The notes beneath the pieces are model-generated. The model saw nothing but the letters and a program-made list of their open reading frames with translations. It had not been told where the DNA came from and did not search any database. Shown one piece after another: positions 3,090-30,847 of a stretch of 31,827 nucleotides of DNA; within the stretch, counting starts at the first letter, position 1; the number at the start of each line of letters is the position of its first letter. The stretch comes from Myxococcales bacterium (lineage in GTDB: Bacteria; Myxococcota_A; Polyangia; Haliangiales; Haliangiaceae), in assembly GCA_947483555.1 (NCBI GenBank), contig CANKMW010000015.1:90425-122251 (forward strand), written 5' to 3'. The translations under genes were made by a program, and so were the position numbers.

Positions 3090-3748
3090 ACCACGTCCGC
3101 CAGGCCCTGATCATCGTTGCCGGGCTCTCGATGCCCGGCGTCATCGTGGACGCGGCCGCCGAGTCGCAAGTCTGGACCGAGGTCGGCGTGCGTCACGACC
3201 TGAGCAAGCGGTTGACGCTGACCTTCGATCAGCACCTGCGGTTCGACGCCGACGTGTCGCGGGTCGGGTCATTCATGCCCGAGCCAGGCCTGGCGTATCG
3301 GGTCCAGCCGTGGCTGCGCGCCGGCGTCGGCTATCGCCTCGAGTACGAGCGTGACAACGGCGGTGACCTGGTGGCGCGGCATCGGCTGTTCGGGTGGGGC
3401 CGGGTGCGGCGCGACGTCTCCGACCTGCGGCTGGAGTACCGGTTGCAGCTGCAGGAGCAGCGCCGTGCCGATGCCAACCCGGTCTACCGCCACACCGTGC
3501 GCAACCGCGGCGAGGTCTCGTTTCGTGGCCTGCGGCCGGTGGTGCCGGCAGCGTCGGTGGAATTGCACCACGTCCTCGGAGAGGACGGCAACACCGCCCA
3601 CCTCGGCAAGATGTGGCTGACGGTCGGTCTCGAATACGGACGCGGCGACCTGGCGTTCGATGCCTTCTATCGGGCCGAGGTGGCGCAGCACGACCCTGGC
3701 GATCCGACCGTGCACATCCTCGGTGTCGGCGTCCACTACGAGCTCTGA
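3086..3748 (+). CDS. exported beta-strand-rich protein, possible outer-membrane beta-barrel (DUF2490-like?), 220 aa
   Basis: N-terminal signal peptide MNHVRQALIIVAGLSMPGVIVDAAAE. Alternating hydrophobic pattern throughout (LRLEYRLQLQ, VSFRGLRP, HILGVGVHYEL). GTGA start/stop overlap with the upstream VTC gene. Confidence 0.6.
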   Translation: MNHVRQALIIVAGLSMPGVIVDAAAESQVWTEVGVRHDLSKRLTLTFDQHLRFDADVSRVGSFMPEPGLAYRVQPWLRAGVGYRLEYERDNGGDLVARHRLFGWGRVRRDVSDLRLEYRLQLQEQRRADANPVYRHTVRNRGEVSFRGLRPVVPAASVELHHVLGEDGNTAHLGKMWLTVGLEYGRGDLAFDAFYRAEVAQHDPGDPTVHILGVGVHYEL

Positions 3749-3756
3749 CTCCTGAG

Positions 3757-4698
3757 CTAGCTGGCCGCGAAGGCTTGCTGGGCGCCGTCGAGGCCGCCAT
3801 GAGTGGCCAGGTAGGTGGCGGTCGTCGGTGCCAGGGTCGCCAGGCGACGCAGGCCGGCGCGGCCGTGCTCGGTGGCGACCCAGCGTTCGAAGAAGTAGGG
3901 CGCGCGCCGGTCGAGGCCGCCGGCCGGCGCGGCGGCGACCGCGGCGGCGAGCTCGTCGATGCCGGCGCCGGTGAGCGCGCTGGTGCGGAAGATCGGCCGA
4001 TCGCCGGCGCCAGGCGCGGCCAGGCGCAGGCTGGCCGACAGCGTGTGATAGGTCGCCGACGCCGCCGGGTCGAGGTCGCCCTTGCTGACCACGAAGGCGT
4101 CCGGCACCTCCATGATGCCGGCCTTCATGAACTGCACGTGATCGCCGCCGTGTGGCTGAAGGACCAGGAACGTGCGGTCGGCGAGCCGCACCACCTCGAC
4201 CTCGCCCTGACCGACGCCGACGGTCTCGACGATCACGGTCGTGAACAGTCGCACCAGCACCCGGCAGGCCTGGTGGGTGGCGCGGGCCACGCCGCCCAGC
4301 TCGGCGGCCGACGCCTGGCTGCGGAAGTACAGCCGTGGCTCGTCGTGCGGGAAGCGGACCCGCGTGCGATCGCCGAGCAGCGCCCCACCGGTCAGCGGGC
4401 TCGAGGGATCGACCGCGACCACGGCGACCCGCTGGGCCGGATCGGCGGCGATGATCCGGTTGGCGACCGCGCCGACCAGCGTCGACTTGCCGACGCCGGG
4501 CGCGCCGGTGATCCCGACCACCCGGCCGATCCCGAGCGCAGCTGCGGCGTCGAGCCGGGCCAGCGCGTCACGTCGCACCGCCGCGGCCTCGGGGCGGTCG
4601 TCCTCGAAGCGGGTGATCAACCGCGCGATCGCGCGCTTGTCGCCGGATCGCGCGGCGTCGATCAGCGTGGCGATCGCCGGCTCGCCGTCCTGGCTCAC
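3757..4698 (-). CDS. meaB: methylmalonyl-CoA mutase-associated G-protein chaperone MeaB/ArgK (313 aa)
   Basis: Walker A GITGAPGVGKST, then G-protein motifs (VDPSSPLTGGALLGDR, VETVGVGQ, SKGDL). The GTG start at 4698..4696 overlaps the mutase TGA stop (4697..4695) as GTGA. The upstream part of the 501-aa track ORF is Arg-rich antisense junk. Confidence 0.85.
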   Translation of the reverse strand: MSQDGEPAIATLIDAARSGDKRAIARLITRFEDDRPEAAAVRRDALARLDAAAALGIGRVVGITGAPGVGKSTLVGAVANRIIAADPAQRVAVVAVDPSSPLTGGALLGDRTRVRFPHDEPRLYFRSQASAAELGGVARATHQACRVLVRLFTTVIVETVGVGQGEVEVVRLADRTFLVLQPHGGDHVQFMKAGIMEVPDAFVVSKGDLDPAASATYHTLSASLRLAAPGAGDRPIFRTSALTGAGIDELAAAVAAAPAGGLDRRAPYFFERWVATEHGRAGLRRLATLAPTTATYLATHGGLDGAQQAFAAS

Positions 4699-6695
4699 CC
4701 GGGGCGTCCCTCGATCACGTCCATCATGCGCTCCATGACCTCGCCGAGCTCGTAGTCCGACGGCGTGAACACCTTGCGGACGCCGAGCGCCTCGAGGGCG
4801 GCGATGTCGCCCTTGGGAATGATGCCGCCCACCACCAGCGGGATGTCGGCGCCGCCGGCGGCGGCCAGCGCCTTCACCAGCTGCCGGGTCAGCTCGACGT
4901 GCGAGCCGCTCAAGATCGACGCGCCGATCAGATCGGCGTCCTCCTCGACCGCGCTGTGGGCGATCTCCTCGGGCGTGAGCCGGATGCCCGAGTAGACGAC
5001 GTCGAAGCCGGCGTGACGGGCCGCCACCGCGATCACCTCGGCGCCGTTGGAGTGGCCGTCGAGGCCGGGCTTGCCGACCACCAGCCGTGGGCGATGGCCG
5101 CGGGCGGCGGCGAAGGCTTCGATGCGAACCCGCAGGCGAGCCGCGCGGGTCTCGTCGAGCTCGAGCCGCTGGCCGGCGACCCCGGTCTGGGCTCGGTATT
5201 CGCCGAACACCGACCGCAGCGTATCGGCCCACTCGCCGGTCGTCACCCGCGCCAGCGCGCACTCGATCGAGGGCTCCATCATGCCGTCGCCCGAGCGCGC
5301 CGCCGCAGTCAGCGCGGCCAGCGCGTTCCGCACCCGGTCGGGGTCGCGCCGGTGGCGGGTCTCCTCGAGCCCGCGCAGCGCGTCGGCCACCGCGCTGTCG
5401 TCGGCCTTGAACACACCACCATCGTCACCACCGACCAGCGGCGAGGGCAGGGCGTCGGTCCACTTGTTGACGCCGACCACGACCTGCGCACCCGAGCCGA
5501 TCCGCGTCATGCGCTCGGCCATCGACTTGACCAGCGCGCCCTTCATGTAGCCGGAGTCGATCGCCGCCCGCACTCCGCCCATGGCCAGGATGCGCGCCAC
5601 CTCGGCCCGCGCGCCGTCGGCGATCTCGGCGGTCTTCGAGGCCACCACCGGGCTGCCCTCGAACAGGTCGGGGTAGTCGAGCAGGTCGGTCTCGAAGGCG
5701 AGGATCTGCTGCAGGCGCAAGGACCACTGCTGATCCCAGGGCCGCGGCAGGCTCATGGCCTCGTTCCAGGTCGGCAGCTGCAAGGCGCGGCAGCGCGCCT
5801 TGCGCGACAGCGTCACGCCCAGGGTCTCGAGCAGGATGCGCCATGCGTTGTTCTCGGGCTGCGCCTCGGTGAGCCCGAGCGAGTTGACCTGCACGCCATA
5901 GCGGAACAGGCGCAGCTTGGGGTCGGTCACCGCGTAGCGCTCGCGCGTGATCTCGTCCCACAGCTCCGCGAACGCGCGCATCTTGCACATCTCCTCGACG
6001 AACCGGATGCCGGCGTTGACGAAGAACGACAGCCGCCCCACGCAGCGCGCGACCGCGGCCTGATCGATGCGGCCGCGCTGCTGGATGAGATCGAGGATGC
6101 CGATCGCGTTGGCGAGCGCGAACGCCACCTCCTGCACTGGCTGCGCGCCGGCCTCCTGCAGGTGGTAGCTGCACACGTTCGACGGGTTCCACTCCGGGAT
6201 ACGATCGACGCAGTACTCGTAGGTCTCGGCGACCAGGCGCAGCGAGTGCTCGGGCGGGAAGATGTACGTGCCGCGGGCCAGGTACTCCTTGACGATGTCG
6301 TTCTGGGTGGTGCCGCGGAGCTGGGCCTCGGGCACGCCGCGCTCGCGGGCCAGCGCCACGTAGAGCGCGAGCAACCACATCGCGGTGCCGTTGATCGTCA
6401 TCGACGTGTTCATGCGCTCGAGGGGGATGCCCTCGAACAGCACGTGGAGGTCGTCGAGCGAGTTGATCGGCACCCCGACCTTGCCGACCTCGGGCAAGGC
6501 GATCGGGGCGTCCGACGAGTAGCCGCACTGGGTGGGCAGATCGAACGCGATCGACAGGCCGGTCTGTCCGCGTTCGAGGTTGGCGCGGTAGAGCGCGTTC
6601 GAGGCCCGCGGGCTCGAATGCCCGGCGTAGGTGCGAAAGATCCACGGCGCGTCGCGCACCACGTTGCCCTTGGCGTCGTTCAGCAGGTGCGACAT
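4695..6695 (-). CDS. B12-dependent acyl-CoA mutase (methylmalonyl-CoA mutase family), single chain with fused C-terminal cobalamin-binding domain, 666 aa
   Basis: N-terminal MSHLLNDAKGNVVRDAPWIFRTYAGHSS...GQTGLSIAFDLPTQCGYSSD matches the mutase catalytic-domain core. The C-terminal region has the DxHxxG B12-binding motif (GLDGHSNGAEV) and a Rossmann-like GGIIP segment. ATG at 6695. The rest of the 724-aa track ORF is an upstream extension with poor composition. Confidence 0.85.
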   Translation of the reverse strand: MSHLLNDAKGNVVRDAPWIFRTYAGHSSPRASNALYRANLERGQTGLSIAFDLPTQCGYSSDAPIALPEVGKVGVPINSLDDLHVLFEGIPLERMNTSMTINGTAMWLLALYVALARERGVPEAQLRGTTQNDIVKEYLARGTYIFPPEHSLRLVAETYEYCVDRIPEWNPSNVCSYHLQEAGAQPVQEVAFALANAIGILDLIQQRGRIDQAAVARCVGRLSFFVNAGIRFVEEMCKMRAFAELWDEITRERYAVTDPKLRLFRYGVQVNSLGLTEAQPENNAWRILLETLGVTLSRKARCRALQLPTWNEAMSLPRPWDQQWSLRLQQILAFETDLLDYPDLFEGSPVVASKTAEIADGARAEVARILAMGGVRAAIDSGYMKGALVKSMAERMTRIGSGAQVVVGVNKWTDALPSPLVGGDDGGVFKADDSAVADALRGLEETRHRRDPDRVRNALAALTAAARSGDGMMEPSIECALARVTTGEWADTLRSVFGEYRAQTGVAGQRLELDETRAARLRVRIEAFAAARGHRPRLVVGKPGLDGHSNGAEVIAVAARHAGFDVVYSGIRLTPEEIAHSAVEEDADLIGASILSGSHVELTRQLVKALAAAGGADIPLVVGGIIPKGDIAALEALGVRKVFTPSDYELGEVMERMMDVIEGRPG

Positions 6696-6816
6696 CGCCA
6701 CCACTATAAAGAGGTGACGCGCTGCGGCATAGCGCGATCGGGAAATGTGCAGATGAACCGGGTTTCGGTAACGACCCGAACCGAGATTACAAACGTGCGT
6801 CGTCCACACTCGGTCG

Positions 6817-7344
6817 ATGAAGAACCTGGGCCCTGTTCTGATCGCCATCGGTCTGCTCGCTCCGGCCACCGCCGCCGCCGGCGTGAACGTCGACTACGTC
6901 GCCCGCGCCGGCGACGACTCGACCGCGGAGCACGTCACGGTGGTGCGCTCGCGCAACGCGATCACCGGCTTCACGACCACGGTCTCGTACGAGAAGGGCG
7001 CGCTGCTCGACGAGCGCGAGGACGGATACACGGTCGAGCTCACCACCGGCTTCGGCTTCGTCCCGGCGTGGTCGTTCCTCGGCCTGCCGCGCTTCGCGGT
7101 CCTGTCGATCGACGCCGCGCAGATCGAGGCGATGGTCTACGTGCTCGATTGCGACCTCGAAGGCTTCTGTGATCAGGTCTCGGCCACGCCCGCCGAGGGA
7201 CGCCTGGAGGTGCGCTGGACGGCGACCGGCGCCACGACGCACGGACCCGGCCGCAACTTCGCGACCCCGGCCCACGCGTCTGGACTCGCCTTCGACGGCG
7301 AGCTCGACCTGGTCGGCGATCTGTCGGGCGCCGCCTGGCGCTGA
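6817..7344 (+). CDS. secreted hypothetical protein (175 aa)
   Basis: Signal peptide MKNLGPVLIAIGLLAPATAAAG, high GC3, no recognisable domain. Confidence 0.6.
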   Translation: MKNLGPVLIAIGLLAPATAAAGVNVDYVARAGDDSTAEHVTVVRSRNAITGFTTTVSYEKGALLDEREDGYTVELTTGFGFVPAWSFLGLPRFAVLSIDAAQIEAMVYVLDCDLEGFCDQVSATPAEGRLEVRWTATGATTHGPGRNFATPAHASGLAFDGELDLVGDLSGAAWR

Positions 7345-17786: not shown

Positions 17787-17858
17787 CTACCTGCCCTCAC
17801 ATCGCCAACGCCACGATCCGGCTTGCGCTGGCTGCGTCCGGTTGGGATCCTTTCGGGC

Positions 17859-19775
17859 GTGAATCCTGGGGTAGCGAGCGCCGGAGCCGCGTCCAACCAG
17901 TACCAGATCCTGGGCCACCTCGCGACGGGCGGGATGGCGGAGCTGTACCTCGCGCGCGCCGTCGGCATCGCCGGGTTCGAGCGCTACGTGGTGCTCAAGC
18001 GCATCATGGCCGAGCACTCGCGCAACCATCGGTTCATCACGATGTTCCTGGACGAGGCGCGGCTGGCCGCACAACTCCATCACCCCAACATCGCGCAGGT
18101 CTACGACATCGGTCGGGTCAGCGACTCGTACTTCTTCACGCTCGAGTACGTCCACGGCGAGAACTGCCGCGATGTGCTGCAGCGGGTCGCGGGCCTCAAG
18201 CGCCAGATTCCGATCGAGCAGACGCTGGCCGTGATCGCCGGGGCGGCCGCTGGCCTCCACTACGCCCACGAGAAACACGGCCTCGACCGCCAGCCGCTCG
18301 GCATCGTGCACCGCGACGTGTCGCCGTCGAACCTCATGGTCTCGTACGAGGGCGCGATCAAGCTGGTCGACTTCGGGATCGCCAAGGCGGCGCACCGGAT
18401 GACCGAGACCCGGTCGGGCGCGGTCAAGGGCAAGGTCGCGTACATGTCGCCCGAGCAGTGCACCGGCCATCCGCTCGACCGCCGCAGCGACATCTTCTCG
18501 CTCGGCATCGTCTTCTACGAGATGGCGACGATGACGCGCCTGTTCAAGCACCCCAACGACTTCGAGACGATGACCAGGATCGTCAACGGACCGATCCCGC
18601 CGCCGACCAGCCGGCGGCCCGAGCTGTCGCGCCAGCTCGAGGCGGTGATCCTGACCTGCCTGGCCCGACGCCCGGAAGACCGCTACCAGACCGGCGCCGA
18701 TCTGCTGCAGGCGATCGATGCCTTGGCGGCACACGAGCGGCTGTCGCTGTCGGCGCCGGCCCTGGGTCGCTACCTCCGTGAGCTGTTCGGCGAACGCCCC
18801 GAGCCGTGGGACGAGCTCGAAGCGGCCGGCGAGCACACCGGGTTGGTGACCATCGAGACCACCAGTTCCGGGCTCGACCCTGCCGGCGACGCGCTGAGCG
18901 CCGGATCGACGCAGCGTTCGTGGAGCGCCGGTGGTGGCGGTGGCCGCGACTGGCTGCCCGGTTCGTCGGCCGCGCTGGTCTCGGCGGTGTCGGTCCTGAC
19001 CTCCGGCGCCACGCCACCGACGATCGATCTGCCGGCGGAATCACCGGCATACCCCTCCAGCCCGCCGGCCGTGCCGGTGCGGCTGGTGCCGGCGCCGCTG
19101 TTGACCGCTGCGCCGCCGATCCGATCCGGGGCGCGCCTGCCACTGCAGCCGCCGGCGATGGACGCGGCGGAGGGATCGGATCCGGACGGCGCGGCGACCG
19201 TCGTCGGGCCGGCCAGCGGACCGCTGATCATGCCGCCGCCGCTGATGGTGCGCGACACGCCCGATCGCGATCCGTCGTGGGGCGGAGGCGGCGACCGCGA
19301 TCCGTCGTGGGGCGGCGGAAGCGGCGCCGCGGAGATCGACCTGCGGCCGCGCCATCGCTGGGTGCTGTGGAGCGCGCTGGCCACCGTCGCCATCGGCGTG
19401 ATCGCGATCGTCGTCGCGTCGGGGGGCAACCCGGAGTCGGGCTCGCCGGCGGCGGTGCCTGCGAGCGCCGCGCCGCCAGCCGCCGTCGCCGACCGACCGC
19501 CGCCAGCCACCGTCGCCGACTCAGCGCCGCCGCCGCCAGCCACCGTCGCCGACTCAGCGCCGCCGGTGGCCGCCCCACCGCCGCCGGCAGCCGCGGTCGC
19601 CGACCCGCCAGCCACCGCGGCGACACGCACGGTCGGCTCGACGAAGACCCGGCCGAGAACGTTGAAGGCGAAGCCCGATCGCATCCGACCCGGTGACGGC
19701 AGCAGTGCCGACCGGGCCACCAAGCCGCCGAAGCCGCCGGTCAAGTGCGGCGGACTCTATCCACCGTGTGACTGA
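17859..19775 (+). CDS. Hanks-type Ser/Thr protein kinase, single TM, Pro/Ala-rich repetitive extracytoplasmic tail (start uncertain: GTG 17859 or TTG 17823)
   Basis: Kinase subdomains: Gly loop LGHLATGGMAELY, VLKRI (Lys), HRDVSPSN catalytic loop, DFG, SPE. TM helix HRWVLWSALATVAIGVIAIVVAS. The tail has 2x DRDPSWGGG and 2x PPATVADSAPP repeats and ends KCGGLYPPCD. Confidence 0.85.
   Translation: MNPGVASAGAASNQYQILGHLATGGMAELYLARAVGIAGFERYVVLKRIMAEHSRNHRFITMFLDEARLAAQLHHPNIAQVYDIGRVSDSYFFTLEYVHGENCRDVLQRVAGLKRQIPIEQTLAVIAGAAAGLHYAHEKHGLDRQPLGIVHRDVSPSNLMVSYEGAIKLVDFGIAKAAHRMTETRSGAVKGKVAYMSPEQCTGHPLDRRSDIFSLGIVFYEMATMTRLFKHPNDFETMTRIVNGPIPPPTSRRPELSRQLEAVILTCLARRPEDRYQTGADLLQAIDALAAHERLSLSAPALGRYLRELFGERPEPWDELEAAGEHTGLVTIETTSSGLDPAGDALSAGSTQRSWSAGGGGGRDWLPGSSAALVSAVSVLTSGATPPTIDLPAESPAYPSSPPAVPVRLVPAPLLTAAPPIRSGARLPLQPPAMDAAEGSDPDGAATVVGPASGPLIMPPPLMVRDTPDRDPSWGGGGDRDPSWGGGSGAAEIDLRPRHRWVLWSALATVAIGVIAIVVASGGNPESGSPAAVPASAAPPAAVADRPPPATVADSAPPPPATVADSAPPVAAPPPPAAAVADPPATAATRTVGSTKTRPRTLKAKPDRIRPGDGSSADRATKPPKPPVKCGGLYPPCD
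19263..19322 (+). repeat. in-frame tandem repeat, 2 copies of a 30-nt unit (GAYCGCGATCCGTCGTGGGGCGG core) encoding DRDPSWGGGG
   Basis: The direct repeat is visible in the sequence at 19263..19285 and 19293..19315, inside the kinase gene. Confidence 0.6.
19498..19560 (+). repeat. in-frame tandem repeat, 2 copies of GCCGCCAGCCACCGTCGCCGACTCAGCGCC with 33-nt period, encoding PPATVADSAPP
   Basis: Identical 30-mers at 19498..19527 and 19531..19560, inside the kinase gene tail. Confidence 0.6.
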
Positions 19776-21535: not shown

Positions 21536-23425
21536 GTGGCGGACGGAAACGCTTGGCGCCTCGTCAGCCGATGCGTGACGGTCGAAGACCTGGTGCGGGC
21601 GTTTCGCACCTTCGCAACGGCTGACGGTCTCGAGAATGTCCCGGTGACCGGAACTGGCCCGGCCGACGGCGCGAAGCTCCGTGTGACGCTGTCGCTGGCG
21701 TCGAAGGTCGCGGTGCTGGATGGCGATGCGGTCGTGGCCACGGGTCCCGGCGTGCTGAGCATTCGCTTCGTCAGCATCGACGTTCGCGGCAAGGGCCTGC
21801 TCGCGTACATGGTCGAGCACCGTGGCACCCAGCACCCGCCACCACTGCCCCGCCACCTGGTGCCGCTGGGCGCGCCGCTCGGGACCGGCGCCCGGGGTGA
21901 TGGCTCGGCGACGTGCACGATCGAGTCGGTGGCCGCCAGTGGGCCGGTGCCCGTGCCCCGGCCATCCGAGCCGACGATTCGCGGTCCGGCTGTGGCTGTG
22001 GCTGTGGTCGACGCCGCGGCGAGGCCGAAGCGCGAGATGCAGAAGACGTTGATGGGCATGCCGACGATCGGAGCGCCGGCGCGAAGCAAGCCGGCGACCG
22101 CACCGCCGCCACCCGCGCCGCCCGGCGTGGTCGCGACCGGCACGCCACCGGGCGTGCCCGCCGACAGCCTGCCGGTGCCCACGCTGCGCGGCGGATCGAG
22201 CGACACCGCACCGACCCAGCCGACCCGTGGCTCGGGCACACCATCGCCGGCCATCGCTGCGGCCGCGCAGGCGCTGGCGGCCGCGCCGCTGCCGTTCGAT
22301 CAACTCGTCACCGTGCGGACCGCGGCGCCGCGTCGCGTCGTGGCCGCACCGTCGGGACCGGTCGACGACCTGCCGACCCTCCCCAACGAAGATCTCGTCA
22401 CCGATGTGGCGGTGGAGCTCCCCGATCTACCGTCGGACTACGTCGACCCGATCGTCGAGCCGCCATCGATGCCGGCCCCGGTTCCGCTCGCCCATGCGCC
22501 GGCCGGATCGTCACCGGGCTGGCCGGTGCCGCCCGGCGCGGCGATGCCCGCGATGCCGGTGATGGCAGCGCCAGCGCCGCACTATCCGACTCCGTATCTG
22601 CACCCTGGCGCACCGCTGCCGGGGACGGCGCCGGTGAGCCCGCACCAGCCTGGCTACGGCACCGGGCCAGCCGCGGTGGTCGACTGGCGGGCGGTTCCGA
22701 ACCAGGTCGAGCTCGACCAAGACATGACCGAGATGGTCCAGCTGGTGCGGCCAGGTGTGCGGCGCCGCTGGCCAGTGATCGCCGTGACCTCGGGCGTGAT
22801 CGTCATCGGGGTGGCGGCGATGGTCATCAGCGCCGCCAGCAGCGGCGACGGCGATGAGCCCGCTGCGGTCGCCCAGCAGGCCGTGACCGCAACGGCTCCG
22901 CGATCCACCGTGCCGCCCGCGGTCCCGGGATCCGATGCCGCGGATCCAGGTTCGGGCGAGGTGGCGGTCCCCAGCCCGGGGCTGGCGACCGAGTCGCCGC
23001 CGCCGTCGCGCTGTCGGGTGGCGTTCACGTCGAGCCCGGCGGCCGCCGAGGTGACGCTCGCTGGCCAGGTCATCGGCTCGACGCCGTTCACGCACGACGG
23101 ACCGTGTACCGGCTACCAGGTCACGTTCCGCCGCGATCGGTACCAGCGCTTGAACCGCGAGGTCGGCGCCAGCGCCACCGCGATCGACGTCCGGCTCGAG
23201 CGACCGATGTTCCGCGTCAAGGTGTCGTCGCGGCCGTCGGGTGCCACCGTGACGGTGGGCGGCAAGCAGGTCGGCAAGACCCCGGTGACGATCGCCTTGC
23301 CCGGCTTCGAGACCACGTCGATCGTCCTGACCCGCAAGGATCACGCACCGGTCACGCAGCGCGTGTACGCGGGCAAGAGCGGGCAGCGTGTCGATCTCAA
23401 GCTGAAGCCACGTGGGCGCCAGTGA
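21536..23425 (+). CDS. membrane protein with PilZ-like N-terminal cytoplasmic domain, Pro-rich linker, one TM helix and two C-terminal PEGA domains (629 aa)
   Basis: GTG start. N-terminal roughly 100 aa is PilZ-like (KLRVTLSLASKVAVLDGDAVVATGPGVLSIRFVSI). TM helix RRRWPVIAVTSGVIVIGVAAMVISAAS. PEGA signatures (RPSGATVTVGGKQVGKTPVTIALPG; AEVTLAGQVIGSTPF). Confidence 0.7.
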   Translation: MADGNAWRLVSRCVTVEDLVRAFRTFATADGLENVPVTGTGPADGAKLRVTLSLASKVAVLDGDAVVATGPGVLSIRFVSIDVRGKGLLAYMVEHRGTQHPPPLPRHLVPLGAPLGTGARGDGSATCTIESVAASGPVPVPRPSEPTIRGPAVAVAVVDAAARPKREMQKTLMGMPTIGAPARSKPATAPPPPAPPGVVATGTPPGVPADSLPVPTLRGGSSDTAPTQPTRGSGTPSPAIAAAAQALAAAPLPFDQLVTVRTAAPRRVVAAPSGPVDDLPTLPNEDLVTDVAVELPDLPSDYVDPIVEPPSMPAPVPLAHAPAGSSPGWPVPPGAAMPAMPVMAAPAPHYPTPYLHPGAPLPGTAPVSPHQPGYGTGPAAVVDWRAVPNQVELDQDMTEMVQLVRPGVRRRWPVIAVTSGVIVIGVAAMVISAASSGDGDEPAAVAQQAVTATAPRSTVPPAVPGSDAADPGSGEVAVPSPGLATESPPPSRCRVAFTSSPAAAEVTLAGQVIGSTPFTHDGPCTGYQVTFRRDRYQRLNREVGASATAIDVRLERPMFRVKVSSRPSGATVTVGGKQVGKTPVTIALPGFETTSIVLTRKDHAPVTQRVYAGKSGQRVDLKLKPRGRQ

Positions 23426-23917: not shown

Positions 23918-24276
23918 TGGCCCACGCCAACCTGCACATGGCGGTGGGGATGATGATCGGCAGCGCCGCGACGATCCTGCCGGTCGCGCGGGCCTGGCTC
24001 GGTCGGAAGCCGCTGGCGCGTCCGGTCGGTCGGATGCTGGTCGCGGCCTACGCGCTCGGCGTATGGGCGCTGGTGCCCAACCTGGTCACCGCCGCCGGTG
24101 GACCGGTCGCGGTGCACACCGCGTCGTGGGCCAACGTCTTCGTCGGTCACGCCGTCATCGACGCCCGCAAGGATGGCGGCCTGCTCATCGGCGAGCTGAT
24201 CCTGGTCGTCGTGCTGGGCTTCCAGTACACGCTGCTGGTAGCGGCGATCCACCGCGCCCGCAGATCAGGGCGCTAG
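23917..24276 (+). CDS. small integral membrane protein (119 aa, about 3 TM), coupled to the preceding gene
   Basis: GTG 23917 overlaps the upstream TAG by 1 nt. Helices (AVGMMIGSAATILPVA, MLVAAYALGVWALVPNLV, LLIGELILVVVLGFQYTLLVAAI). The 3' end overlaps the convergent beta-propeller gene by 12 nt. Confidence 0.5.
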   Translation: MAHANLHMAVGMMIGSAATILPVARAWLGRKPLARPVGRMLVAAYALGVWALVPNLVTAAGGPVAVHTASWANVFVGHAVIDARKDGGLLIGELILVVVLGFQYTLLVAAIHRARRSGR

Positions 24277-26100
24277 TCGCGGAAGCTCGAGCAGCCCGCG
24301 CCGGGTCGCGATCCAGTGCGTGGCGCCAACCCGCAGCGCGGCGGTGACGTCCTTGCCGGGTAACCCGGTGGCCGTCGTCCACGTCGCCGTGGTGCCATCG
24401 CCGCTGCGCAGGCCTTCCTGCGTCGACGCGTACAGCGTGTCGCCGTCCCAGCGCAGGCCGCCGGGGTTGATCCAGCCGCCACCCAGGCGCGCCGCCGTCG
24501 ACGGCATGGCGGCGCCGGCATCGCCGAGGTCGAAACGCACCACGCCACCCTTGTAGCCGCCGACCCAGACCGAGCGGCCGCGGGCGGCGATCGCCATCAC
24601 CCAGTCGTCGTCGAGGTGGCCGGTGGCGACGGCGAACCGCTGCCAGCCGGTGCCGCGATCGCCGGCCTTCACGGCGGCGGTGCTCGGCCCCCGCCACACG
24701 CCGGTGGTGGTGCCGAGCCAGATCATGCCGTCGACGTCCTCGGCCACCGCCCACACGTTGCCGATCTCGGTGCCGGGCGGGCCGAGCGGGGCCGGCCGTG
24801 CGTCGGTCACGATCACCGCGCCGGTCGACGTCCCGGCGACGATGCGGCCGTCGCGCAGGCGGGTCAGCGCCAGCACGCTGCGCCCGGGCAGGCCGTCGCG
24901 GCGGGTGAGGCGGCCGACCGCGTCGCCATCCAGCGTCATCAGGCCGGCGGCGGTGGCGACCCACAGCCGCGACGCCTTGCCGGGCCGCGGCTCGACCAGC
25001 ACCGCGTTGATGCGGCCGTCGAGATCGGGGTGTGCGACGGTGCGCCAGGCGCCGCGCTCGTGCACCGCCAGGCCGTGATCGAAGGTCCCGACCCACAACC
25101 GCTCGCCATCGGCGGCCAGGGCCGAGACGTCGTTGGAGAGCAGGCCGTCGGCGTGCGGTGCCGCGCGCCATGCCGCGCCGGCGCCGGGCCGCAGCCACAG
25201 GCCATCGAGGCCACCGGCGCACGCCCCGCCGTCGTGCTCGGACAGCGCCTGCGCCAGCACCAGGCCGGCGGGCGCGCCGTCGAGGGCGATCAGCCGCCCG
25301 CGATCCACCCGCCGGAGTCCCTCGCCGAGACCCGCGACCACGATCGCGCCGTCGACCGCGGTGACGCGGGTGACGTGGCCGCCGCCGAGGTCGCGGACGC
25401 CATCGCCGTCGCGGACCAGCAACCCATCGGTGGTCGCGATCCATAGCCGATCAGCCGCGGGCCCCGAGCCAGCCGCCGGCCCGGCGTACATCGAGGTGAT
25501 CGCCACGTTCGGATGCGCGACCCCGAGCGTCACCGGCTCGAGGCGACCACCGCGGAGCTGGAACAGGCCGGCGGCGGTGCCGGCCCACAGCGAGCCGCCG
25601 CTCGAGACCAGCGCCGCGACCCGGCCGCGCGCGGCCCGGGTGCCGCCTTTGAACGGCACCGTGACGCCCTTGCCGCGCGCGCCGAGCTTCACCACGCCGC
25701 CGTTCCAGGTCGCGGCGTAGAGCGCGCCGTCGTGGCGGACCAGGTCGCGGATCGCGGCACCGGCGATGCTGCGCGTCACCGCCAGCGCCTCGCCGTCGAT
25801 CCGGATCCGCGCCCCGCCACCGTCGGCGCCGATCCAGACCTGATCGCCTTCGCGCACGATGCTCTCGATACGCGTCCCGGGCAGGCCGTCGCGGGCGGTC
25901 CACACCGCGCGCTGAACCCCGCTGGCATCGACGAGCACCAGGCCACCGCCGGTGCCGACCAGCGCGCCGCCGGTGGCCAGCGGCAGGCACGCTCGCACCT
26001 CGTGGGTGTCGCTGTGCACGCGGGCCGGCGCCGCGGCCGCCGCGGCCGGGACCGCCACCGCCGCCAGCGCGGCGACGATCACCTGGCCGCGCGGCGTCAC
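24265..26100 (-). CDS. secreted beta-propeller protein with two-component-regulator-propeller (Reg_prop/Y_Y_Y-like) repeats, 611 aa
   Basis: The GTG start 26100..26098 overlaps the upstream TGA as GTGA. Signal MTPRGQVIVAALAAVAVPAAAAAAPA. At least 7 repeats of the LW(I/V)GTxxGL type (LWAGTAAGLFQL, LWIATTDGLLVRD, LWVGTFDHGLAVHE, LWVATAAGLMTLD, IWLGTTTGVWRG, VWVGGYKGGVVRFD, VWIGADGGG). Confidence 0.8.
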   Translation of the reverse strand: MTPRGQVIVAALAAVAVPAAAAAAPARVHSDTHEVRACLPLATGGALVGTGGGLVLVDASGVQRAVWTARDGLPGTRIESIVREGDQVWIGADGGGARIRIDGEALAVTRSIAGAAIRDLVRHDGALYAATWNGGVVKLGARGKGVTVPFKGGTRAARGRVAALVSSGGSLWAGTAAGLFQLRGGRLEPVTLGVAHPNVAITSMYAGPAAGSGPAADRLWIATTDGLLVRDGDGVRDLGGGHVTRVTAVDGAIVVAGLGEGLRRVDRGRLIALDGAPAGLVLAQALSEHDGGACAGGLDGLWLRPGAGAAWRAAPHADGLLSNDVSALAADGERLWVGTFDHGLAVHERGAWRTVAHPDLDGRINAVLVEPRPGKASRLWVATAAGLMTLDGDAVGRLTRRDGLPGRSVLALTRLRDGRIVAGTSTGAVIVTDARPAPLGPPGTEIGNVWAVAEDVDGMIWLGTTTGVWRGPSTAAVKAGDRGTGWQRFAVATGHLDDDWVMAIAARGRSVWVGGYKGGVVRFDLGDAGAAMPSTAARLGGGWINPGGLRWDGDTLYASTQEGLRSGDGTTATWTTATGLPGKDVTAALRVGATHWIATRRGLLELPRLAP

Positions 26101-28874
26101 TGTCCGATCACCAGCTCGAGCGCGGCCTGGTTCAGGGCGTGGTCGCGCACCACCACCCGCAGCGTCACCGGCGCCGCGGCCGCCGCGGTCTTCCACAACC
26201 CCTCGAACCGCCCCCACGAGGTCTGCGCCAGCATCAGGATCTCGCCACCGGGCAGCACGACCTCGACGCGGTCGGCATCCTTGCGGCGCGAGCTGGTGGT
26301 CGCCAGCTGGCGAGCCTCGATCCGGTAGCCGTCGGCGGTGCGGGTCGCCGTGAGGCGCATCGCCGGCGCCACGGTGTCGACCGTGTAACCGAGGTGCAGC
26401 ACCTCGACGCGGCCGTCGGCGTGGGTGACCGTCACCCGGGCCTGGTAGTCGCCATCGGCGGTGTCCTTGTCGATGAGGAAGCGCACCATCCAGGCATCGA
26501 CGTCGCGGTCCCACTCCGCGACCTTGGTCTCGCCCCACGGAAACGTCACGATCACGGAGCGCGCGTCGCGCGGCGCCGGGATCTTGATCTCGGGGTCGCC
26601 GGGCTGGATCTCGTCGGGGCTGAGGCTGGCCTGGCGAGCGCCCAGGGTGTCGAGATCGCCGCCGGTGACCTGCGGCGCCTGCGCCAGCTGCTGCTCCTCG
26701 GCCTTCTTGCGTTCGATCTGATGCAGCTTGTACGCCTCGTCGCTCTCGAGCACGAGCAGCGACGTGTGCCGGGACAGCACGCCGTGATCCTGGCTGGCCT
26801 TGACGATCTCCTCGCGCGGGGCGTCGGCAGCGTCGAGCGCCGCCAGGTGCTGGACCGCCCAGCGCTGGGCCACGGCGGCGGTGTCGACGGCGCCGGCCAG
26901 CATCACCTGCTGGGTTACCTCGGAGCCGGCGACGTCGCCGGTCAGCGTGAGCGACGCGGGGACCGGCGCGCCGGTCGGGGTGTGCACGATCGCCACCAGG
27001 GTATCGCCGTCCCACAACGTGGTGGCGCGGTTCGGGTACAGGACGCCGCTCGCACCGGCGTCGAGCGCGAGGTGGGCGTTGCGGATCCGGCCGGCGTCGC
27101 CGCCGTGGGCGGCGGCGAGCGCGAAGCGGGCAGCGTCGATCGAGCGCCGCACCATCATCGCGCGTCCGCCGCTATGGCCGGCGAGGTCGGCCCATAGCTC
27201 GGTCGATGCGCCCTTGCCGACCAGCGCGGCGTGGATGGGGGCGCCGGCGGCGGCGGCGAGCGCGGCCAGCGGGGCCTTGCCCAGCTCGCCCCAGGTCGGC
27301 ACGCCGTCGCCGATGTAGATGATATCGGTGGGCGACAGCCGGGTCGCCGCCGCCAGCGCGGCGCCCACGTCGCTGGCACCGTCGGGTTCGATGCCGTCGA
27401 GAAACGCGGCGGCGTCGGTGATCGCCGACGGCGTCGCGGCGACCATCTCGGTGGCGTGCGCGACCACGGCGACGTCGCTGGCCAGGACCATGAAGCGGTC
27501 GCGGTCGCCGAGCTCGCCGAGCGTGGTGCGCAGGAGCTCCAGCTGCAGCGGCCGGCCCTCGAGCGTGCTGCGCGAGGTGTCGAACACGACCACCAGGCGA
27601 CGGGGCGGACGCGCACCGGCGCCGGCGGTCGCATGACCGCCAAACAGCGACCGGGCCGGGGTCACGCGGACCGCGGTGTAGGTGCCGTCGGCGCGCACCT
27701 CGCGCATCACCGCCGCCACCGTGGTGGTCACCGGCACGCTGAGGTCGAGGCCGCCGGCGACGTTGGTCTCCTTGGCGGCGACCTTGCCGTCGACGGTGAC
27801 GGTGAGGGCGCCGATCGTCGAGGTGCCGCCGGTCTCGGGCAGCCCGACCGTGAAGTCGTAGGCCCAACCGTCGGCGTCGCGGGCCAGCGGCGTGGTGTAA
27901 CGGATGACCACGCGCTTCTCGCTGCTGGCCTCGATCGGAAACACCCGCAGCTTGAACCAGTTGCCCTGCTCCCACTCGAGCAGCGCCGGGTCCTGCATCT
28001 CGTCCACGATCTTCTCGTAGACCGCGCGCGCCTTCTCGCGCTCGACGATCTCGCCCTCCATCATGCGGCCCGAGATCTCCATCGCCATGCCGGTGAGGAT
28101 GGCGCCGTCGGGAACCGGAAACCGGAACGTGCCCTCGCGGGTCTCGGCGGCCGGGTTGAAGAACACGTGCTCGACCTCGGTCATCGCGAGGTCGCCGGCG
28201 GTCTTGACGCGGACGTCGACCTTGCGCAGGGCGAGCGGTTCACCGATCTCGCTGGCGCCGCGGGCCTCGAGGCGGCCGATGCCAGCGCCGTCCTGGTCGT
28301 GCTCGAGGCCGAGGCTCCAGTCGGCGAGCTCGGGGCGGGCGCCGGTGGCCAGCACCTGGGTCGTACCGTCGTTGCGCGCCGCCAGCAGCACGTCGCCGGT
28401 GATCGCCAGCGCGCCGTCGCGGCTGGCGACGGCGACCGGGATCGCGGCGGCCGAACGGCGCAGGCGGCTCTTGCCGGCCAGCGCCTCGACGTACACGCCC
28501 TGATCGTCCTGAGCCAGGCGCAGGCGCGCACCGGCACGCAGCCACAGCCGACCGGCGGCGTCGCCGTGGCCGATCGCGACGATCGCGCCCTGGCGCGTCA
28601 CCTCGATCTCGCGCACCGCCGTCATCGGCGTGCCGGCGGTGAGCGGGCGCCAGGTCGGATCGGCGCCAGTGCGGACCCGGACCACGCCGCGGGCTCGGAC
28701 CAGCTCGAGCGGCAGGCGCAGCGGCGTGCTCGGAAGGTCGGCGCGGGCGGAGCCGCCGGCGAGCGCGCCGTCGGGATGGCGCGCGGTCGGGGCGGAGCCG
28801 CAGGCCAGCGCGGTGGCGGTGGCGCCGAGCGCGGCCAGGTTGCGGATCGACGCGGTCGAGAGCAGGGACTTCAT
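26097..28874 (-). CDS. lipoprotein with VIT (vault/inter-alpha-trypsin) domain and von Willebrand factor A domain, ITIH-like, 925 aa
   Basis: ATG 28874 overlaps the upstream TGA as ATGA. Lipoprotein signal MKSLLSTASIRNLAALGATATALAC. VIT signature (HVFFNPAAETREGTFRFPVPDGAILTGMAMEISGRMMEGEIVEREKARAVYEKIVDEMQDPALLEWEQGNWFKLRVFPI). vWA with MIDAS (LVVVFDTSRST...). A roughly 200-aa C-terminal extension of unknown fold. Confidence 0.85.
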   Translation of the reverse strand: MKSLLSTASIRNLAALGATATALACGSAPTARHPDGALAGGSARADLPSTPLRLPLELVRARGVVRVRTGADPTWRPLTAGTPMTAVREIEVTRQGAIVAIGHGDAAGRLWLRAGARLRLAQDDQGVYVEALAGKSRLRRSAAAIPVAVASRDGALAITGDVLLAARNDGTTQVLATGARPELADWSLGLEHDQDGAGIGRLEARGASEIGEPLALRKVDVRVKTAGDLAMTEVEHVFFNPAAETREGTFRFPVPDGAILTGMAMEISGRMMEGEIVEREKARAVYEKIVDEMQDPALLEWEQGNWFKLRVFPIEASSEKRVVIRYTTPLARDADGWAYDFTVGLPETGGTSTIGALTVTVDGKVAAKETNVAGGLDLSVPVTTTVAAVMREVRADGTYTAVRVTPARSLFGGHATAGAGARPPRRLVVVFDTSRSTLEGRPLQLELLRTTLGELGDRDRFMVLASDVAVVAHATEMVAATPSAITDAAAFLDGIEPDGASDVGAALAAATRLSPTDIIYIGDGVPTWGELGKAPLAALAAAAGAPIHAALVGKGASTELWADLAGHSGGRAMMVRRSIDAARFALAAAHGGDAGRIRNAHLALDAGASGVLYPNRATTLWDGDTLVAIVHTPTGAPVPASLTLTGDVAGSEVTQQVMLAGAVDTAAVAQRWAVQHLAALDAADAPREEIVKASQDHGVLSRHTSLLVLESDEAYKLHQIERKKAEEQQLAQAPQVTGGDLDTLGARQASLSPDEIQPGDPEIKIPAPRDARSVIVTFPWGETKVAEWDRDVDAWMVRFLIDKDTADGDYQARVTVTHADGRVEVLHLGYTVDTVAPAMRLTATRTADGYRIEARQLATTSSRRKDADRVEVVLPGGEILMLAQTSWGRFEGLWKTAAAAAPVTLRVVVRDHALNQAALELVIGQ

Positions 28875-29980
28875 CGCGAGCCTCCACGCGCGACGTTGAT
28901 CCGCGCGACAGTGACGGTGTCTTCCTTGTTGAACAGGCGGTAGGGCAGGACGTGGCGTTGCTCGCCGGGCTTGCCCTCGTCGAGGACGATCACGACCTCG
29001 CCGCGAGCCTCGGAGATGTTGCCGCGGCCGACGCCGAAGTAGTTCACCTGCACCAGGTAGGTGCCGGGCCGCGCGCTGGGCGCGGTGTAGCTCTCGGGGC
29101 CGTAGCCGGTGGTGATGTCGTCGTACAGGGCGTCGCCGAGCGCACCCTGCTTGTGCTGGTAGTAGACCCGCTCGCCGGTCGGGTTGGTCACCCACAGGTC
29201 GACGTCGCTGCGATCGGTGTCCCAGGTCAGGTAGATCTTGATGTCGTTCTCGCTGCCGCCGGTCAGCTTCAGCAGGGCGATCGCCTGGTCCATGGCGGCG
29301 GCGTCGGCGGGCTGGTCGCGGGCCAGCTGGTGGTAGACCTGCGCCAGGCGCTGGCGGGCCGGGTAGCGCACCGCCTCGGGCGTGGCGGTGTCGCCGACGA
29401 TGGCCTCGAGACGCTGGCGGGCCTCGGCGTTGCGGCCCATGCGCTGGGCCACGTCGGCGAGCTCGAACGCGAGGCGGCGGTCATCGGGCGACATCAGGGC
29501 GGCGGCGGTCAGCCGCTCGTACGCGGCCTCGAGATCGCCGGACTGCTTGAGCGCGCTGGCCAGGGCGCGCTGCGCGCTGGCGTCCTTGGGCAGCAGCTCG
29601 ACCACCGCCGAGTAGGCGCGCCGGGCCTGCGCGCGCTGGCCCAGCTCGCTGTACAGGTCGCCGAGCAGGCGCACCACCACCAGGTTGTAGGCGTCGGCGG
29701 CCCGCCACGCGCGCGCCGCGGTGACCGCCTCGTCGAGCTTGCCGGCGCGGTGCAGGGCCCGCACCAGCGTGAAGCGGGCGCCGCGATCCTTGGCATCGGC
29801 GTCGACGGCGGCGCGCAGCTTGGCCAGATCGGCATCGGTGACGGCGTCACGCGCGCCGGCCGGCTCGCGATCGCCGGCGATCACGGACAGGCGCGACGTC
29901 GCGGGCGCCGGTGTGGCCGCGGCGCGGGTTGCCGCCAGCGCCAGCGCGGCGGCGAGCAGGACAAACGGGAGCTTCCTCAT
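28871..29980 (-). CDS. secreted TPR-repeat protein with C-terminal YfaP/DUF2135-like domain, 369 aa
   Basis: ATG 29980 (MRKLPFVLLAAALALAATRAAA signal). TPR-like helices (AYNLVVVRLLGDLYSELGQRAQARRAYSAVVELLPKDASAQRALASALKQSGDLEAAYERL...). C-terminal roughly 110 aa (DIKIYLTWDTDRSDVDLWVTNPTGERVYYQHKQGALGDALYDDITTGYGPESYTAPSARPGTYLVQVNYFG) resembles DUF2135. First gene of the coupled operon. Confidence 0.75.
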   Translation of the reverse strand: MRKLPFVLLAAALALAATRAAATPAPATSRLSVIAGDREPAGARDAVTDADLAKLRAAVDADAKDRGARFTLVRALHRAGKLDEAVTAARAWRAADAYNLVVVRLLGDLYSELGQRAQARRAYSAVVELLPKDASAQRALASALKQSGDLEAAYERLTAAALMSPDDRRLAFELADVAQRMGRNAEARQRLEAIVGDTATPEAVRYPARQRLAQVYHQLARDQPADAAAMDQAIALLKLTGGSENDIKIYLTWDTDRSDVDLWVTNPTGERVYYQHKQGALGDALYDDITTGYGPESYTAPSARPGTYLVQVNYFGVGRGNISEARGEVVIVLDEGKPGEQRHVLPYRLFNKEDTVTVARINVARGGSR

Positions 29981-30262
29981 GCGGTGTGGATTTGCATCGC
30001 GGGTGCCAGCGCGAAAGCCGGCGCGGATCGCGGAGTTGGGCGCCAGCGTGGGCGGGGCGACACGCTGCCGACCGCGCCGCGGACACGGCCTCGGGTCGGA
30101 CCACCACCGATTCCCCCGCTGCCGCCGAACCCAGGTCCTCCTCGCACGACCTCGCGCGCCGTCGCGGGGGGCTCCGACGGGTCCCAGCCGGCGACCGCGT
30201 GGGCGGTGGTGCTTTTGGGTGCGACATCCGGCGCGACGCTCCGTCTCCGCGGTGAACCCCAC

Positions 30263-30268
30263 GGAGAA
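30263..30268 (+). promoter_or_regulatory. Shine-Dalgarno GGAGAA 6 nt upstream of ATG 30275
   Basis: The motif is visible in the sequence. It is the strongest SD motif in the window. Confidence 0.5.
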
Positions 30269-30274
30269 CCACGC

Positions 30275-30847
30275 ATGATCACGCACGCTCGTTTCCTGCC
30301 CTTGCTCGCATCCCTGACCCTCGGCCTGGCGCTCACGGAGTCCGCGCACGCCGATACCCCGCTCACCGAGATCACGGCCTACGAGGACGGCTTCGCGCCC
30401 CAGGTGGTCTACGGACCCGCCGCGGTCCCGGCCGGGATGAAGGGCAATTTCTCGATCGTCAACGCGCTGCCGGCCCTGACGCCGGTCGAGCTCGTCGTCG
30501 AGCTCGATGACGACGGACAGCCGGACGCGTTCTCGACGGTGACCTTCGTCATCGCCATCGAGAACGGCGGCAAGGTGCCGATCGACATCTACCGCGTCAA
30601 CTCGTTGCTCGAGGACCGCCACTGGGTCGTCCCGACGTTCACGCCGCAGCGCCTCGCGCCGGGTCAGGTGCTGCTGGTCAAGGTCGTCTTCGCACCCAAG
30701 GCCGCCGGCGAGTACAAGGGCATCTTCGACGTGTGGGCCGGGTGGCGCCGCAACTACGAGTCGACGCGGGCGCGCTTCCCCGGCCTGGCGCGGGTCCGGA
30801 CCCACGACTGGATCGAGGTGCCGGACGGCGCCCAGCGCCAGCCGTGA
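30275..30847 (+). CDS. secreted hypothetical protein (190 aa), divergent from the VIT-vWA operon
   Basis: ATG with strong SD. Signal MITHARFLPLLASLTLGLALTESAHA. High GC3. This is the only coding part of the 631-aa track ORF 28952..30847; the rest is antisense to the TPR gene. Confidence 0.7.
   Translation: MITHARFLPLLASLTLGLALTESAHADTPLTEITAYEDGFAPQVVYGPAAVPAGMKGNFSIVNALPALTPVELVVELDDDGQPDAFSTVTFVIAIENGGKVPIDIYRVNSLLEDRHWVVPTFTPQRLAPGQVLLVKVVFAPKAAGEYKGIFDVWAGWRRNYESTRARFPGLARVRTHDWIEVPDGAQRQP

Follow-up and report, generated by a model that had tools for sequence, protein, structure and literature searches.

Three consecutive minus-strand genes, here called A, B, and C, form an apparently translationally coupled operon in a 31,827-nucleotide stretch (the window) of the genome of a Myxococcales bacterium of the family Haliangiaceae (GenBank assembly GCA_947483555.1, contig CANKMW010000015.1, positions 90,425 to 122,251). 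The operon encodes (i) a TPR protein with a C-terminal DUF2135/YfaP_C module, (ii) a VIT-vWA lipoprotein that resembles the heavy chains of inter-alpha-trypsin inhibitor (ITIHs), and (iii) a Reg_prop beta-propeller protein. On the basis of sequence comparison, A and B are the two parts of a split and re-ordered form of a widespread single-chain VIT-vWA-(TPR)-DUF2135 protein, and the triad is a self-contained module of the class Polyangia that is mobile in its context. The three products probably constitute an envelope complex, roughly equimolar and situated outside the cytoplasm, that binds its ligand in a metal-dependent manner, with adhesion or matrix organization as the most plausible role.

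Frame translation places gene A at 29980..28874 (369 amino acids (aa), ATG start, stop 28873..28871), gene B at 28874..26100 (925 aa, ATG start, stop 26099..26097), and gene C at 26100..24268 (611 aa, GTG start, stop 24267..24265), all on the minus strand. Third-position GC reaches ~0.9-0.98 in exactly these frames. The chaining of the genes by ATGA and GTGA overlaps, proposed in a preliminary description of this DNA, is correct to the base and conserved across related loci, which points to coupled translation, and a GGAGG lies 7 nucleotides (nt) upstream of the B start. The operon is bounded by a divergent plus-strand gene from 30275 and a convergent plus-strand gene ending at 24276 and therefore comprises exactly three genes:

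28871..29980, minus strand: gene A, predicted exported TPR and DUF2135/YfaP_C protein, 369 aa (Pfam; AlphaFold model; 683 homologues)
28871..28874, minus strand: A/B junction ATGA, combining the A stop TGA with the B start ATG (translation; -4 or -1 overlap kept in most loci)
26097..28874, minus strand: gene B, ITIH-like VIT-vWA lipoprotein, 925 aa (Pfam, AlphaFold model, Foldseek)
26097..26100, minus strand: B/C junction GTGA, combining the B stop TGA with the C start GTG (translation; in-frame ATGA/GTGA in ~50 of 57 loci)
24265..26100, minus strand: gene C, predicted exported Reg_prop beta-propeller protein, 611 aa, 14 repeats (Pfam PF07494)
29981..30274, no strand assigned: divergent intergenic region 5′ of A, 294 bp, presumed site of the operon promoter (gene boundaries)

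The evidence that joins A to B comes from proteins in which their modules form one chain. Searching with the C-terminal 129 aa of A alone returned only short gene fragments, which were used to build a DUF2135 profile. Against 1.8 billion cluster representatives, this profile matched 8621, and many of the best matches are proteins of ~1000 aa that end in the module. An N-terminal VIT domain is present in each of the nine such proteins that were scanned, three of the nine place TPRs between the core and DUF2135, and one (P0311) has the order FecR-VIT-VWA-...-DUF2135. Local hidden Markov models (HMMs) built from the B core and the A modules were then run on the top 148 DUF2135 representatives. 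Among these, 79 reach a length of at least 800 aa, and a B-like core is detected in 78 of them. TPRs lie between the vWA core and DUF2135 in the single-chain proteins P0306, P0318, P0323, and P0311. B aligns with P0311 over 518 columns at 30% identity (E 4.4e-45), while the DUF2135 module of A matches its single-chain counterparts at 1e-31 to 1e-37. The occurrence of DUF2135 C-terminal to VIT-vWA proteins, which the preliminary description had stated, is thus seen in the representative searches.

Because homologous modules are fused in these proteins, which is classic evidence of the fusion type, the products of A and B are expected to act together. Several single-chain relatives already hold TPRs in front of DUF2135, and the detached part is for this reason read as the whole TPR-DUF2135 unit, encoded upstream of the core. 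It had earlier been proposed that DUF2135 split from VIT-vWA and then fused to TPR; the split stands, while the fusion falls away. The single-chain proteins (~1000 aa, annotated as “VIT domain-containing protein”, e.g., HZU97332.1 from Planctomycetota) share the homologous core and C-terminal module with the triad, and for them, too, there is no described function. Unlike them, the triad divides the unit between two genes, with TPR-DUF2135 first, and keeps this split in ~57 loci. Additions to B are a lipobox, a beta domain at the N-terminus, and the pair of Ig-like domains, and a third gene, for the propeller, is coupled to A and B. Neither the N-terminal domain nor the Ig-like domains were found in single-chain relatives by the local HMM scan.

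B and C are tied by fusion in two loci, which suggests that they also act together. In locus L003, P0114 is a 1441-aa B-C fusion (VIT-vWA-Reg_prop) without the signal peptide of C, and at L059:5830-9138, B and a half-size C make up a single open reading frame (ORF) of 1102 aa.

The arrangement is widely conserved. B has 335 detectable homologues in the protein collection, the named ones mostly from Kofleriaceae metagenome-assembled genomes (MAGs), and the nearest relatives are found in MAGs of Kofleriaceae and other Myxococcota. A locus scan with one genome per species returned 80 loci, which were then searched by tblastn with A, B, and C. Of the loci L004 to L071, practically all that extend across the flanks show the A-B-C order, at B identities of 36-78%, and the order, the 4-nt overlaps, and the B lipobox recur in ~57 independent loci. 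Carriers belong to the Kofleriaceae/Haliangiales, the Polyangiaceae together with Labilithrix, and the Nannocystaceae, among them two cultured species, Enhygromyxa salina (DSM 15201, locus L069) and Plesiocystis pacifica (SIR-1, locus L061), and the neighborhood check put forward with the original proposal comes out in its favor. The best-conserved part of the operon is the DUF2135 module of A, with 56-90% identity across loci. When all flank ORFs of the related loci were clustered, no additional gene was seen to travel with the triad other than through local synteny in close relatives, and even L001 and L003 have different flanks. It is this conservation of order, overlaps, and lipobox amid varying flanks that marks the triad as a self-contained module of Polyangia.

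The largest product, B, has an ITIH-like core by both sequence and predicted fold. Its AlphaFold model has a mean predicted local distance difference test (pLDDT) score of 83.7 and a predicted template modeling (pTM) score of 0.70. From the N-terminus, it consists of a disordered tether, an all-beta domain, the VIT sandwich region, the vWA fold, a beta/helical region, a disordered stretch, and two Ig-like domains. Invariant features were read from an alignment of 55 homologues, and the parts of the protein are as follows:

28800..28874, minus strand: lipoprotein signal peptide of B with lipobox A-L-A-C25, followed by a disordered tether of ~25 residues (alignment and model)
28347..28709, minus strand: N-terminal all-beta domain, residues 56-176 (13 modeled strands, pLDDT >90)
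27897..28229, minus strand: VIT domain, residues 216-326 (Pfam PF08487 at 1.2e-26; aligns to the VIT of ITIH4, ITIH1, and PARP4)
27105..27599, minus strand: vWA domain, residues 426-590, with a complete metal-ion-dependent adhesion site (MIDAS) of D432, S434, S436, S/T501, and D523 (Pfam VWA_3)
26682..27089, minus strand: beta region and helices that follow the vWA, residues 596-731, with “TSLLVLE..EAYK..IERK” (aligns to P0311 and, past the vWA, to ITIH4 and ITIH1)
26571..26666, minus strand: invariant linker, residues 737-768, “TGGDLDTLGARQASLSPDEIQPGDPEIKIPAP” (alignment of 55 homologues)
26106..26591, minus strand: two C-terminal Ig-like domains, residues 762-832 and 839-923 (Big_13; modeled strand pattern)

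The vWA assignment comes from VWA_3 (PF13768, 8.4e-9, residues 426-572), and the MIDAS, called intact in the preliminary description, is indeed so: D432-T-S434-R-S436, PDGA(S/T)D at 498-502, and G-D523-G are all invariant. An hmmsearch of Protein Data Bank sequences with B returns ITIH4 (7.5e-15) and ITIH1 (3.4e-8), with PARP4 also among the closest solved relatives. A Foldseek search with the model places ITIH1 (6fpy) on top (E 8.7e-27, 580 columns, TM(target) 0.53), which bears out the ITIH-like architecture that had been recognized at the outset. The N-terminal beta domain has no Pfam match at E<=10. A FecR-like identity was considered for it and rejected, given this result and an hhalign probability of 2% against the FecR region of P0311. 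With the window B as tblastn query, no match extends upstream of residue ~180-198 in most Polyangiaceae and Nannocystaceae orthologues, and a few match from residue <=50. The C-terminus scanned alone scores 27.3 bits for Big_13 against a cut-off of 27.

The linker between the post-vWA region and the first Ig-like domain is invariant at most positions, including TGGDLD and QPGDPE, the latter being its core, at 26589..26606. Residues 732-753 are predicted to be disordered (pLDDT ~31), and QPGDPE is modeled at the entry to the first Ig-like domain. The motif (I/L/V)QPGDPE(I/V)x(I/V) is kept in every orthologue that covers the region, down to ~38% identity, while the linker around it drifts. At the equivalent junction, the single-chain relatives carry I(K/Q)PW(D/N/T)PxTPY, in which the Asp is not invariant.

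B and the ITIH heavy chains share the N-terminal VIT, the vWA with full MIDAS, the beta/helical region past the vWA, and a Gly-Asp-Pro motif at the entry to a beta-sandwich behind the core. ITIH3, ITIH5, and ITIH6 carry GDPH at this sandwich entry, and GDPH in VWD domains is cleaved autocatalytically at the Asp-Pro bond, as stated in PMC10880436. In B, the motif is GDPE, the His being replaced by Glu. Unlike ITIH proteins, B has a predicted N-terminal lipid anchor and an extra N-terminal beta domain. Its residues 590-925 give no ITI_HC_C match (PF06668) at E<=10 and hold the two Big_13-type Ig-like domains in its place. The partners also differ: they are a TPR-DUF2135 protein and a probable double propeller rather than bikunin/Kunitz, and domain scans of A, C, and the neighboring genes detect no Kunitz or other inhibitor domain. 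A second VIT-vWA family, ~30% identical to B, occurs in Nannocystaceae and other Myxococcota (L072-L083); its TPR gene lies downstream rather than upstream, and neither DUF2135 nor a propeller gene accompanies it.

Gene A encodes the detached TPR-DUF2135 unit, modeled at a pLDDT of 84 and a pTM of 0.80:

29909..29980, minus strand: signal peptide of A, ~residues 1-24, of the signal peptidase I (SPI) kind, ending AAA before T (sequence pattern)
29855..29896, minus strand: residues 29-42, “SRLSVIAGDREPAG”, with a conserved strand near the N-terminus and, behind it, the motif GDREPAG (alignment and model)
29276..29836, minus strand: TPR array, residues 49-235, 11 helices
28892..29248, minus strand: C-terminal DUF2135/YfaP_C beta-sandwich, residues 245-363 (Pfam PF09906, hhalign)

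The array matches several Pfam TPR families (TPR_19 at 4e-10) and resembles peptide-binding TPRs. DUF2135 (PF09906) scores 22.8 bits for the whole protein against a cut-off of 22, and 24.5 bits for residues 241-369 alone. This borderline call is secured by the strong hhalign profile match to E. coli YfaP (probability 99.7%, E 2.8e-25, 183 aligned columns). All the domain assignments made at first reading, namely TPR, DUF2135, VIT, vWA, and Reg_prop, hold in the Pfam search. In the segment ahead of the array, E39 and P40 are invariant among homologues, and the strand at 31-35 is modeled at pLDDT ~93. The GDREPAG motif right behind the signal peptide echoes QPGDPE of B and the “I.PWDP.TPY” that precedes the TPRs in single-chain relatives.

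C carries 14 motifs of the form phi-W-phi-G-T-x-x-G-L, spaced by 34-51 aa. Reg_prop (PF07494) is the sole family detected in it, with 53.6 bits against a cut-off of 20.4 (E 7.7e-15), and the protein ends directly behind repeat 14. The propeller of seven or more blades described earlier is therefore a Reg_prop propeller as stated, with a repeat count of 14 instead of about 7. The number of repeats suggests that C is probably two seven-bladed propellers. This reading also fits a half-size C of ~310 aa, equivalent to the last seven repeats, that occurs in one Polyangiaceae sub-clade (L051, L053, L060, L062, L063, and L070; also L059). The single feature to be placed within C is the following:

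25201..25989, minus strand: first seven repeats of C, bracketed by Cys38 and Cys294 (cysteines invariant in 41 full-length orthologues)

These are the only two cysteines of the protein (Cys38 at 25987-25989 and Cys294 at 25219-25221). Their invariance suggests a candidate disulfide that probably closes propeller 1, which would place C in an oxidizing compartment.

All three products appear to be exported through Sec, as their N-termini had already indicated. A begins with MRKLPFVLLAAALALAATRAAA, an SPI-like sequence whose n-h-c pattern is retained in 30 homologues, and C with M/V-TPRGQVIVAALAAVAVPAAAAAAP, likewise SPI-like and conserved in orthologues. B bears the lipobox L-A-C25-G and is predicted to be lipidated at Cys25 and to hang from the membrane on a tether of ~25 residues; residues 1-42 have pLDDT <50. 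Cys25 is invariant, and the lipobox Cys is present in orthologues of all lineages. The +2 residue is Gly (G26), nearly invariant in the 55 closest homologues and Gly, Ala, or Ser in distant orthologues, never Lys. In Myxococcus, lipoproteins with Lys at +2 are retained in the inner membrane. Because no Lys follows the lipobox Cys, B is likely to reside in the outer membrane. The best NCBIfam matches of B, all below cut-offs, are surface-sorted VIT proteins (sortase, XrtN, MSEP-CTERM, and PEP-CTERM targets), a pattern suggesting that bacterial VIT-vWA proteins are recurrently anchored in the envelope. Among these, TIGR03788 (marine sortase), TIGR04477 (XrtN), and TIGR04286 (MSEP-CTERM) share with B a VIT (+vWA) core and, as predicted for B, are exported and anchored in the envelope, and B matches TIGR03788 at E 7.9e-36 (123.7 bits against a cut-off of 551.65). 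Unlike B, they are anchored by C-terminal sorting signals rather than an N-terminal lipobox, and they lack TPR-DUF2135 or propeller partners.

Two further known systems invite comparison. The beta-sandwich of E. coli YfaP is homologous to that of A, with the common motif WDTDxTD(V/L)DLxV..P.GE...D(V)TTGYGPE...G.Y.V.(V/I)NY. Each of the two modules is found alongside a large exported protein similar to one from metazoans. Unlike A, YfaP has a different N-terminal part without TPRs, and its partner is alpha-2-macroglobulin (A2M), not VIT-vWA. The MG1655 record lists yfaP as the last gene of yfaA-yfaT-yfaS-yfaQ-yfaP, adjoining the A2M pseudogene yfaS, in line with the background given when the operon was first described. 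Membership of the triad in an A2M operon of the E. coli type was considered and rejected, A2M, DUF2138, DUF1175, and DUF2300 genes being absent from the window and not conserved in related loci. The second system comprises the Bacteroides hybrid two-component sensors, whose periplasmic Reg_prop double propellers bind glycans and resemble C in its ~14 Reg_prop repeats. C differs from these sensors in lacking a YYY domain, a transmembrane helix, a kinase, and a receiver, and it is predicted to be a free exported protein. PADLOC defense models yield no match for B or C and one chance-level match for A (E 0.004), and membership in an anti-phage defense system was rejected on this result. The literature searched holds no paper on the triad family (DUF2135, YfaP, bacterial VIT-vWA lipoproteins, or myxobacterial VIT proteins) and no article mentioning DUF2135. 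The only functional report on a bacterial VIT-VWA protein found there concerns an unrelated 708-aa protein in Limnobacter, in agreement with the initial statement that the combination has no described function.

The genomic contexts of single-chain relatives differ from that of the triad in a manner that bears on function. Eight such contexts were sampled; a signaling neighbor is present in three, and additional contexts are mostly short and uninformative. At L085:938-5523 (JGI 3300035099), the 3′ end of a gene for an extracytoplasmic function (ECF) sigma-70 factor overlaps the start of P0311, a 1345-aa protein with a transmembrane segment, FecR, VIT, VWA, TPR, and YfaP_C. The pair looks like a sigma/anti-sigma couple whose extracytoplasmic sensor would be the single-chain form of A+B. 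At L086:4837-10592 (Planctomycetota GCA_035653775.1), a gene for a 934-aa VIT-TPR-YfaP_C protein is separated by 1 nt from the next gene, which encodes a 984-aa Ser/Thr kinase bearing a WD40 propeller. This makes two cases in which a propeller protein is coupled to the VIT/YfaP_C family, here in combination with a signaling domain. At L089:3573-9088 (GCA_022844575.1), genes for an ECF sigma factor, a Por_Secre_tail protein (type IX secretion signal), and an overlapping 1214-aa VIT-CarboxypepD_reg-YfaP_C protein lie in a row.

In the reading that we favor, and that we hold to be moderately probable as a whole, coupled translation would supply A, B, and C in about equal amounts. All three would cross the inner membrane, and B would be lipid-anchored, probably to the outer membrane. 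A would dock on B and non-covalently restore the single-chain VIT-vWA-TPR-DUF2135 arrangement. The TPR groove of A may grip the invariant acidic linker of B, and C would dock on B as the third subunit. The MIDAS would bind an acidic group of an extracellular or envelope ligand through a Mg2+ or Ca2+ bridge, and the propellers and beta-sandwiches would provide additional binding surfaces. Rather than inhibiting proteases, such a complex would most plausibly adhere to, or organize, a polymer or protein of the matrix or envelope. Four points weigh against it: (i) placement at the outer membrane or cell surface draws solely on the lipobox and the +2 residue, (ii) the Pfam DUF2135 score of A is barely over its cut-off, even though the hhalign match to YfaP is strong, (iii) the two B-C fusions may have arisen artificially, through errors of assembly or frameshifts, and (iv) some single-chain relatives are wired to signaling genes, either for an ECF sigma factor or for a Ser/Thr kinase.

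Because of this last association, a sensory role deserves weight, unlikely as it appears. The triad would then capture a periplasmic or surface ligand and signal to an unlinked transducer, in the manner of Reg_prop hybrid two-component or FecR-type anti-sigma systems. The anti-sigma topology of P0311 and the overlap of its gene with that of an ECF sigma factor fit such a role, as do the ECF sigma factor gene two genes upstream of the VIT-YfaP_C protein in L089 and the WD40-propeller kinase next to the VIT-TPR-YfaP_C gene in L086; Pfam, moreover, describes Reg_prop as a sensor-domain family of hybrid two-component regulators. In the triad itself, however, Pfam and NCBIfam scans find no transmembrane helix and no anti-sigma, kinase, or receiver domain in A, B, or C, no regulator gene is conserved beside it in ~57 loci, and the Ser/Thr kinase of the window (17823..19775) lies outside the conserved unit. 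Even among the sampled single-chain contexts, signaling neighbors are confined to the three of eight named above. Considerably less probable is an analogy to ITIH processing, in which B would cut itself between QPGD and PE and shed its Ig-like domains. The reactive C-terminal Asp would couple the lipid-anchored VIT-vWA unit covalently to an envelope or matrix polysaccharide, with A and C, the latter as a glycan-binding double propeller, as transfer or positioning machinery. Such a reaction would parallel, in bacteria, the transfer of heavy chains onto chondroitin sulfate or hyaluronan. The replacement of the His of GDPH by Glu counts against self-cleavage, as does the variable Asp in the I(K/Q)PW(D/N/T)PxTPY junction of single-chain relatives.

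The preliminary description had raised the possibility of an anti-protease or trap system analogous to the bacterial A2M operons that house YfaP, and the homology of the C-terminal module of A to YfaP, the product of a gene that closes an operon with the A2M pseudogene yfaS, is what speaks for it. We regard this analogy as highly improbable. Domain scans of A, B, C, and the flanks detect neither A2M, MG, or thioester domains nor a Kunitz or any other inhibitor domain, nothing A2M- or inhibitor-like turns up in the rest of the window or is conserved near related loci, and most close DUF2135 modules are fused to VIT-vWA rather than linked to A2M. To our knowledge, mammalian ITIH heavy chains are not themselves protease inhibitors either. 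The presence of vWA and TPR proteins in one operon, together with a weak NCBIfam TPR_BatC match of A (26 bits), brings to mind the Bat/MoxR-type systems, in which vWA and TPR proteins are remodeled by a MoxR AAA+ ATPase. That match, however, is far under its cut-off of 175 bits, and B is a VIT-vWA lipoprotein and not a transmembrane vWA of the BatA/B type. Since MoxR and DUF58 genes are missing both from the window and from the conserved neighbors, this explanation is effectively refuted. The same can be said with even more assurance of the notion that A, B, and C are functionally unrelated neighbors with incidental overlaps. It is refuted by the conservation of order and overlaps in ~57 loci, down to 36-38% identity and with differing flanks, and by the fusions that tie A to B and B to C.

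The surroundings of the operon are those of an ordinary high-GC chromosome, with genes for methylmalonyl-CoA mutase and MeaB, Mqo, a pyridoxal phosphate-dependent decarboxylase, an M28 peptidase, a Ser/Thr kinase, and a PEGA protein in the remainder of the window. The divergent neighbor (30275-30847, plus strand) encodes a small secreted protein (MITHARFLPLLASLTLGLALTESAHA...) without a Pfam match and has the 294-bp intergenic region in common with gene A. An ORF cluster that contains this protein, merged with an adjoining enoyl-CoA hydratase ORF, is found in 12 related loci. A sigma-70 consensus scan of the region upstream of A gave no match, promoter and terminator scans being uninformative in 74% GC DNA. 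The Ser/Thr protein kinase (17823-19775, plus strand) and the PEGA-domain protein (21536-23425, plus strand) are encoded 1-6 kb downstream of the operon and are not conserved with the triad. At the far end of the window, a VTC-domain protein gene (2301-3748, plus strand) is directly followed by one for a DUF2490 protein, and MeaB and methylmalonyl-CoA mutase adjoin on the minus strand (3757-6869).

Catalogues already include both the domain families and the single-chain architecture. What is new, and well supported, is the split, propeller-expanded, translationally coupled three-gene form conserved across Polyangia. Also new are the joining of B and C in a single ORF in two loci and the invariant, disordered linker of B that ends in QPGDPE. 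Bacterial VIT-vWA and DUF2135/YfaP proteins are numerous, the DUF2135 module lacks a described function, and in this operon the family comes naturally dissected. Its split form provides three separately tractable subunits with predicted contacts and cultured hosts in Enhygromyxa salina and Plesiocystis pacifica. The operon also bears on how far the likeness between bacterial VIT-vWA proteins and mammalian ITIH extends, as a Gly-Asp-Pro sits where ITIH proteins are processed. If the complex turns out to be an adhesin or matrix organizer, an entire class of social, predatory bacteria would share it as a conserved part of their envelope.

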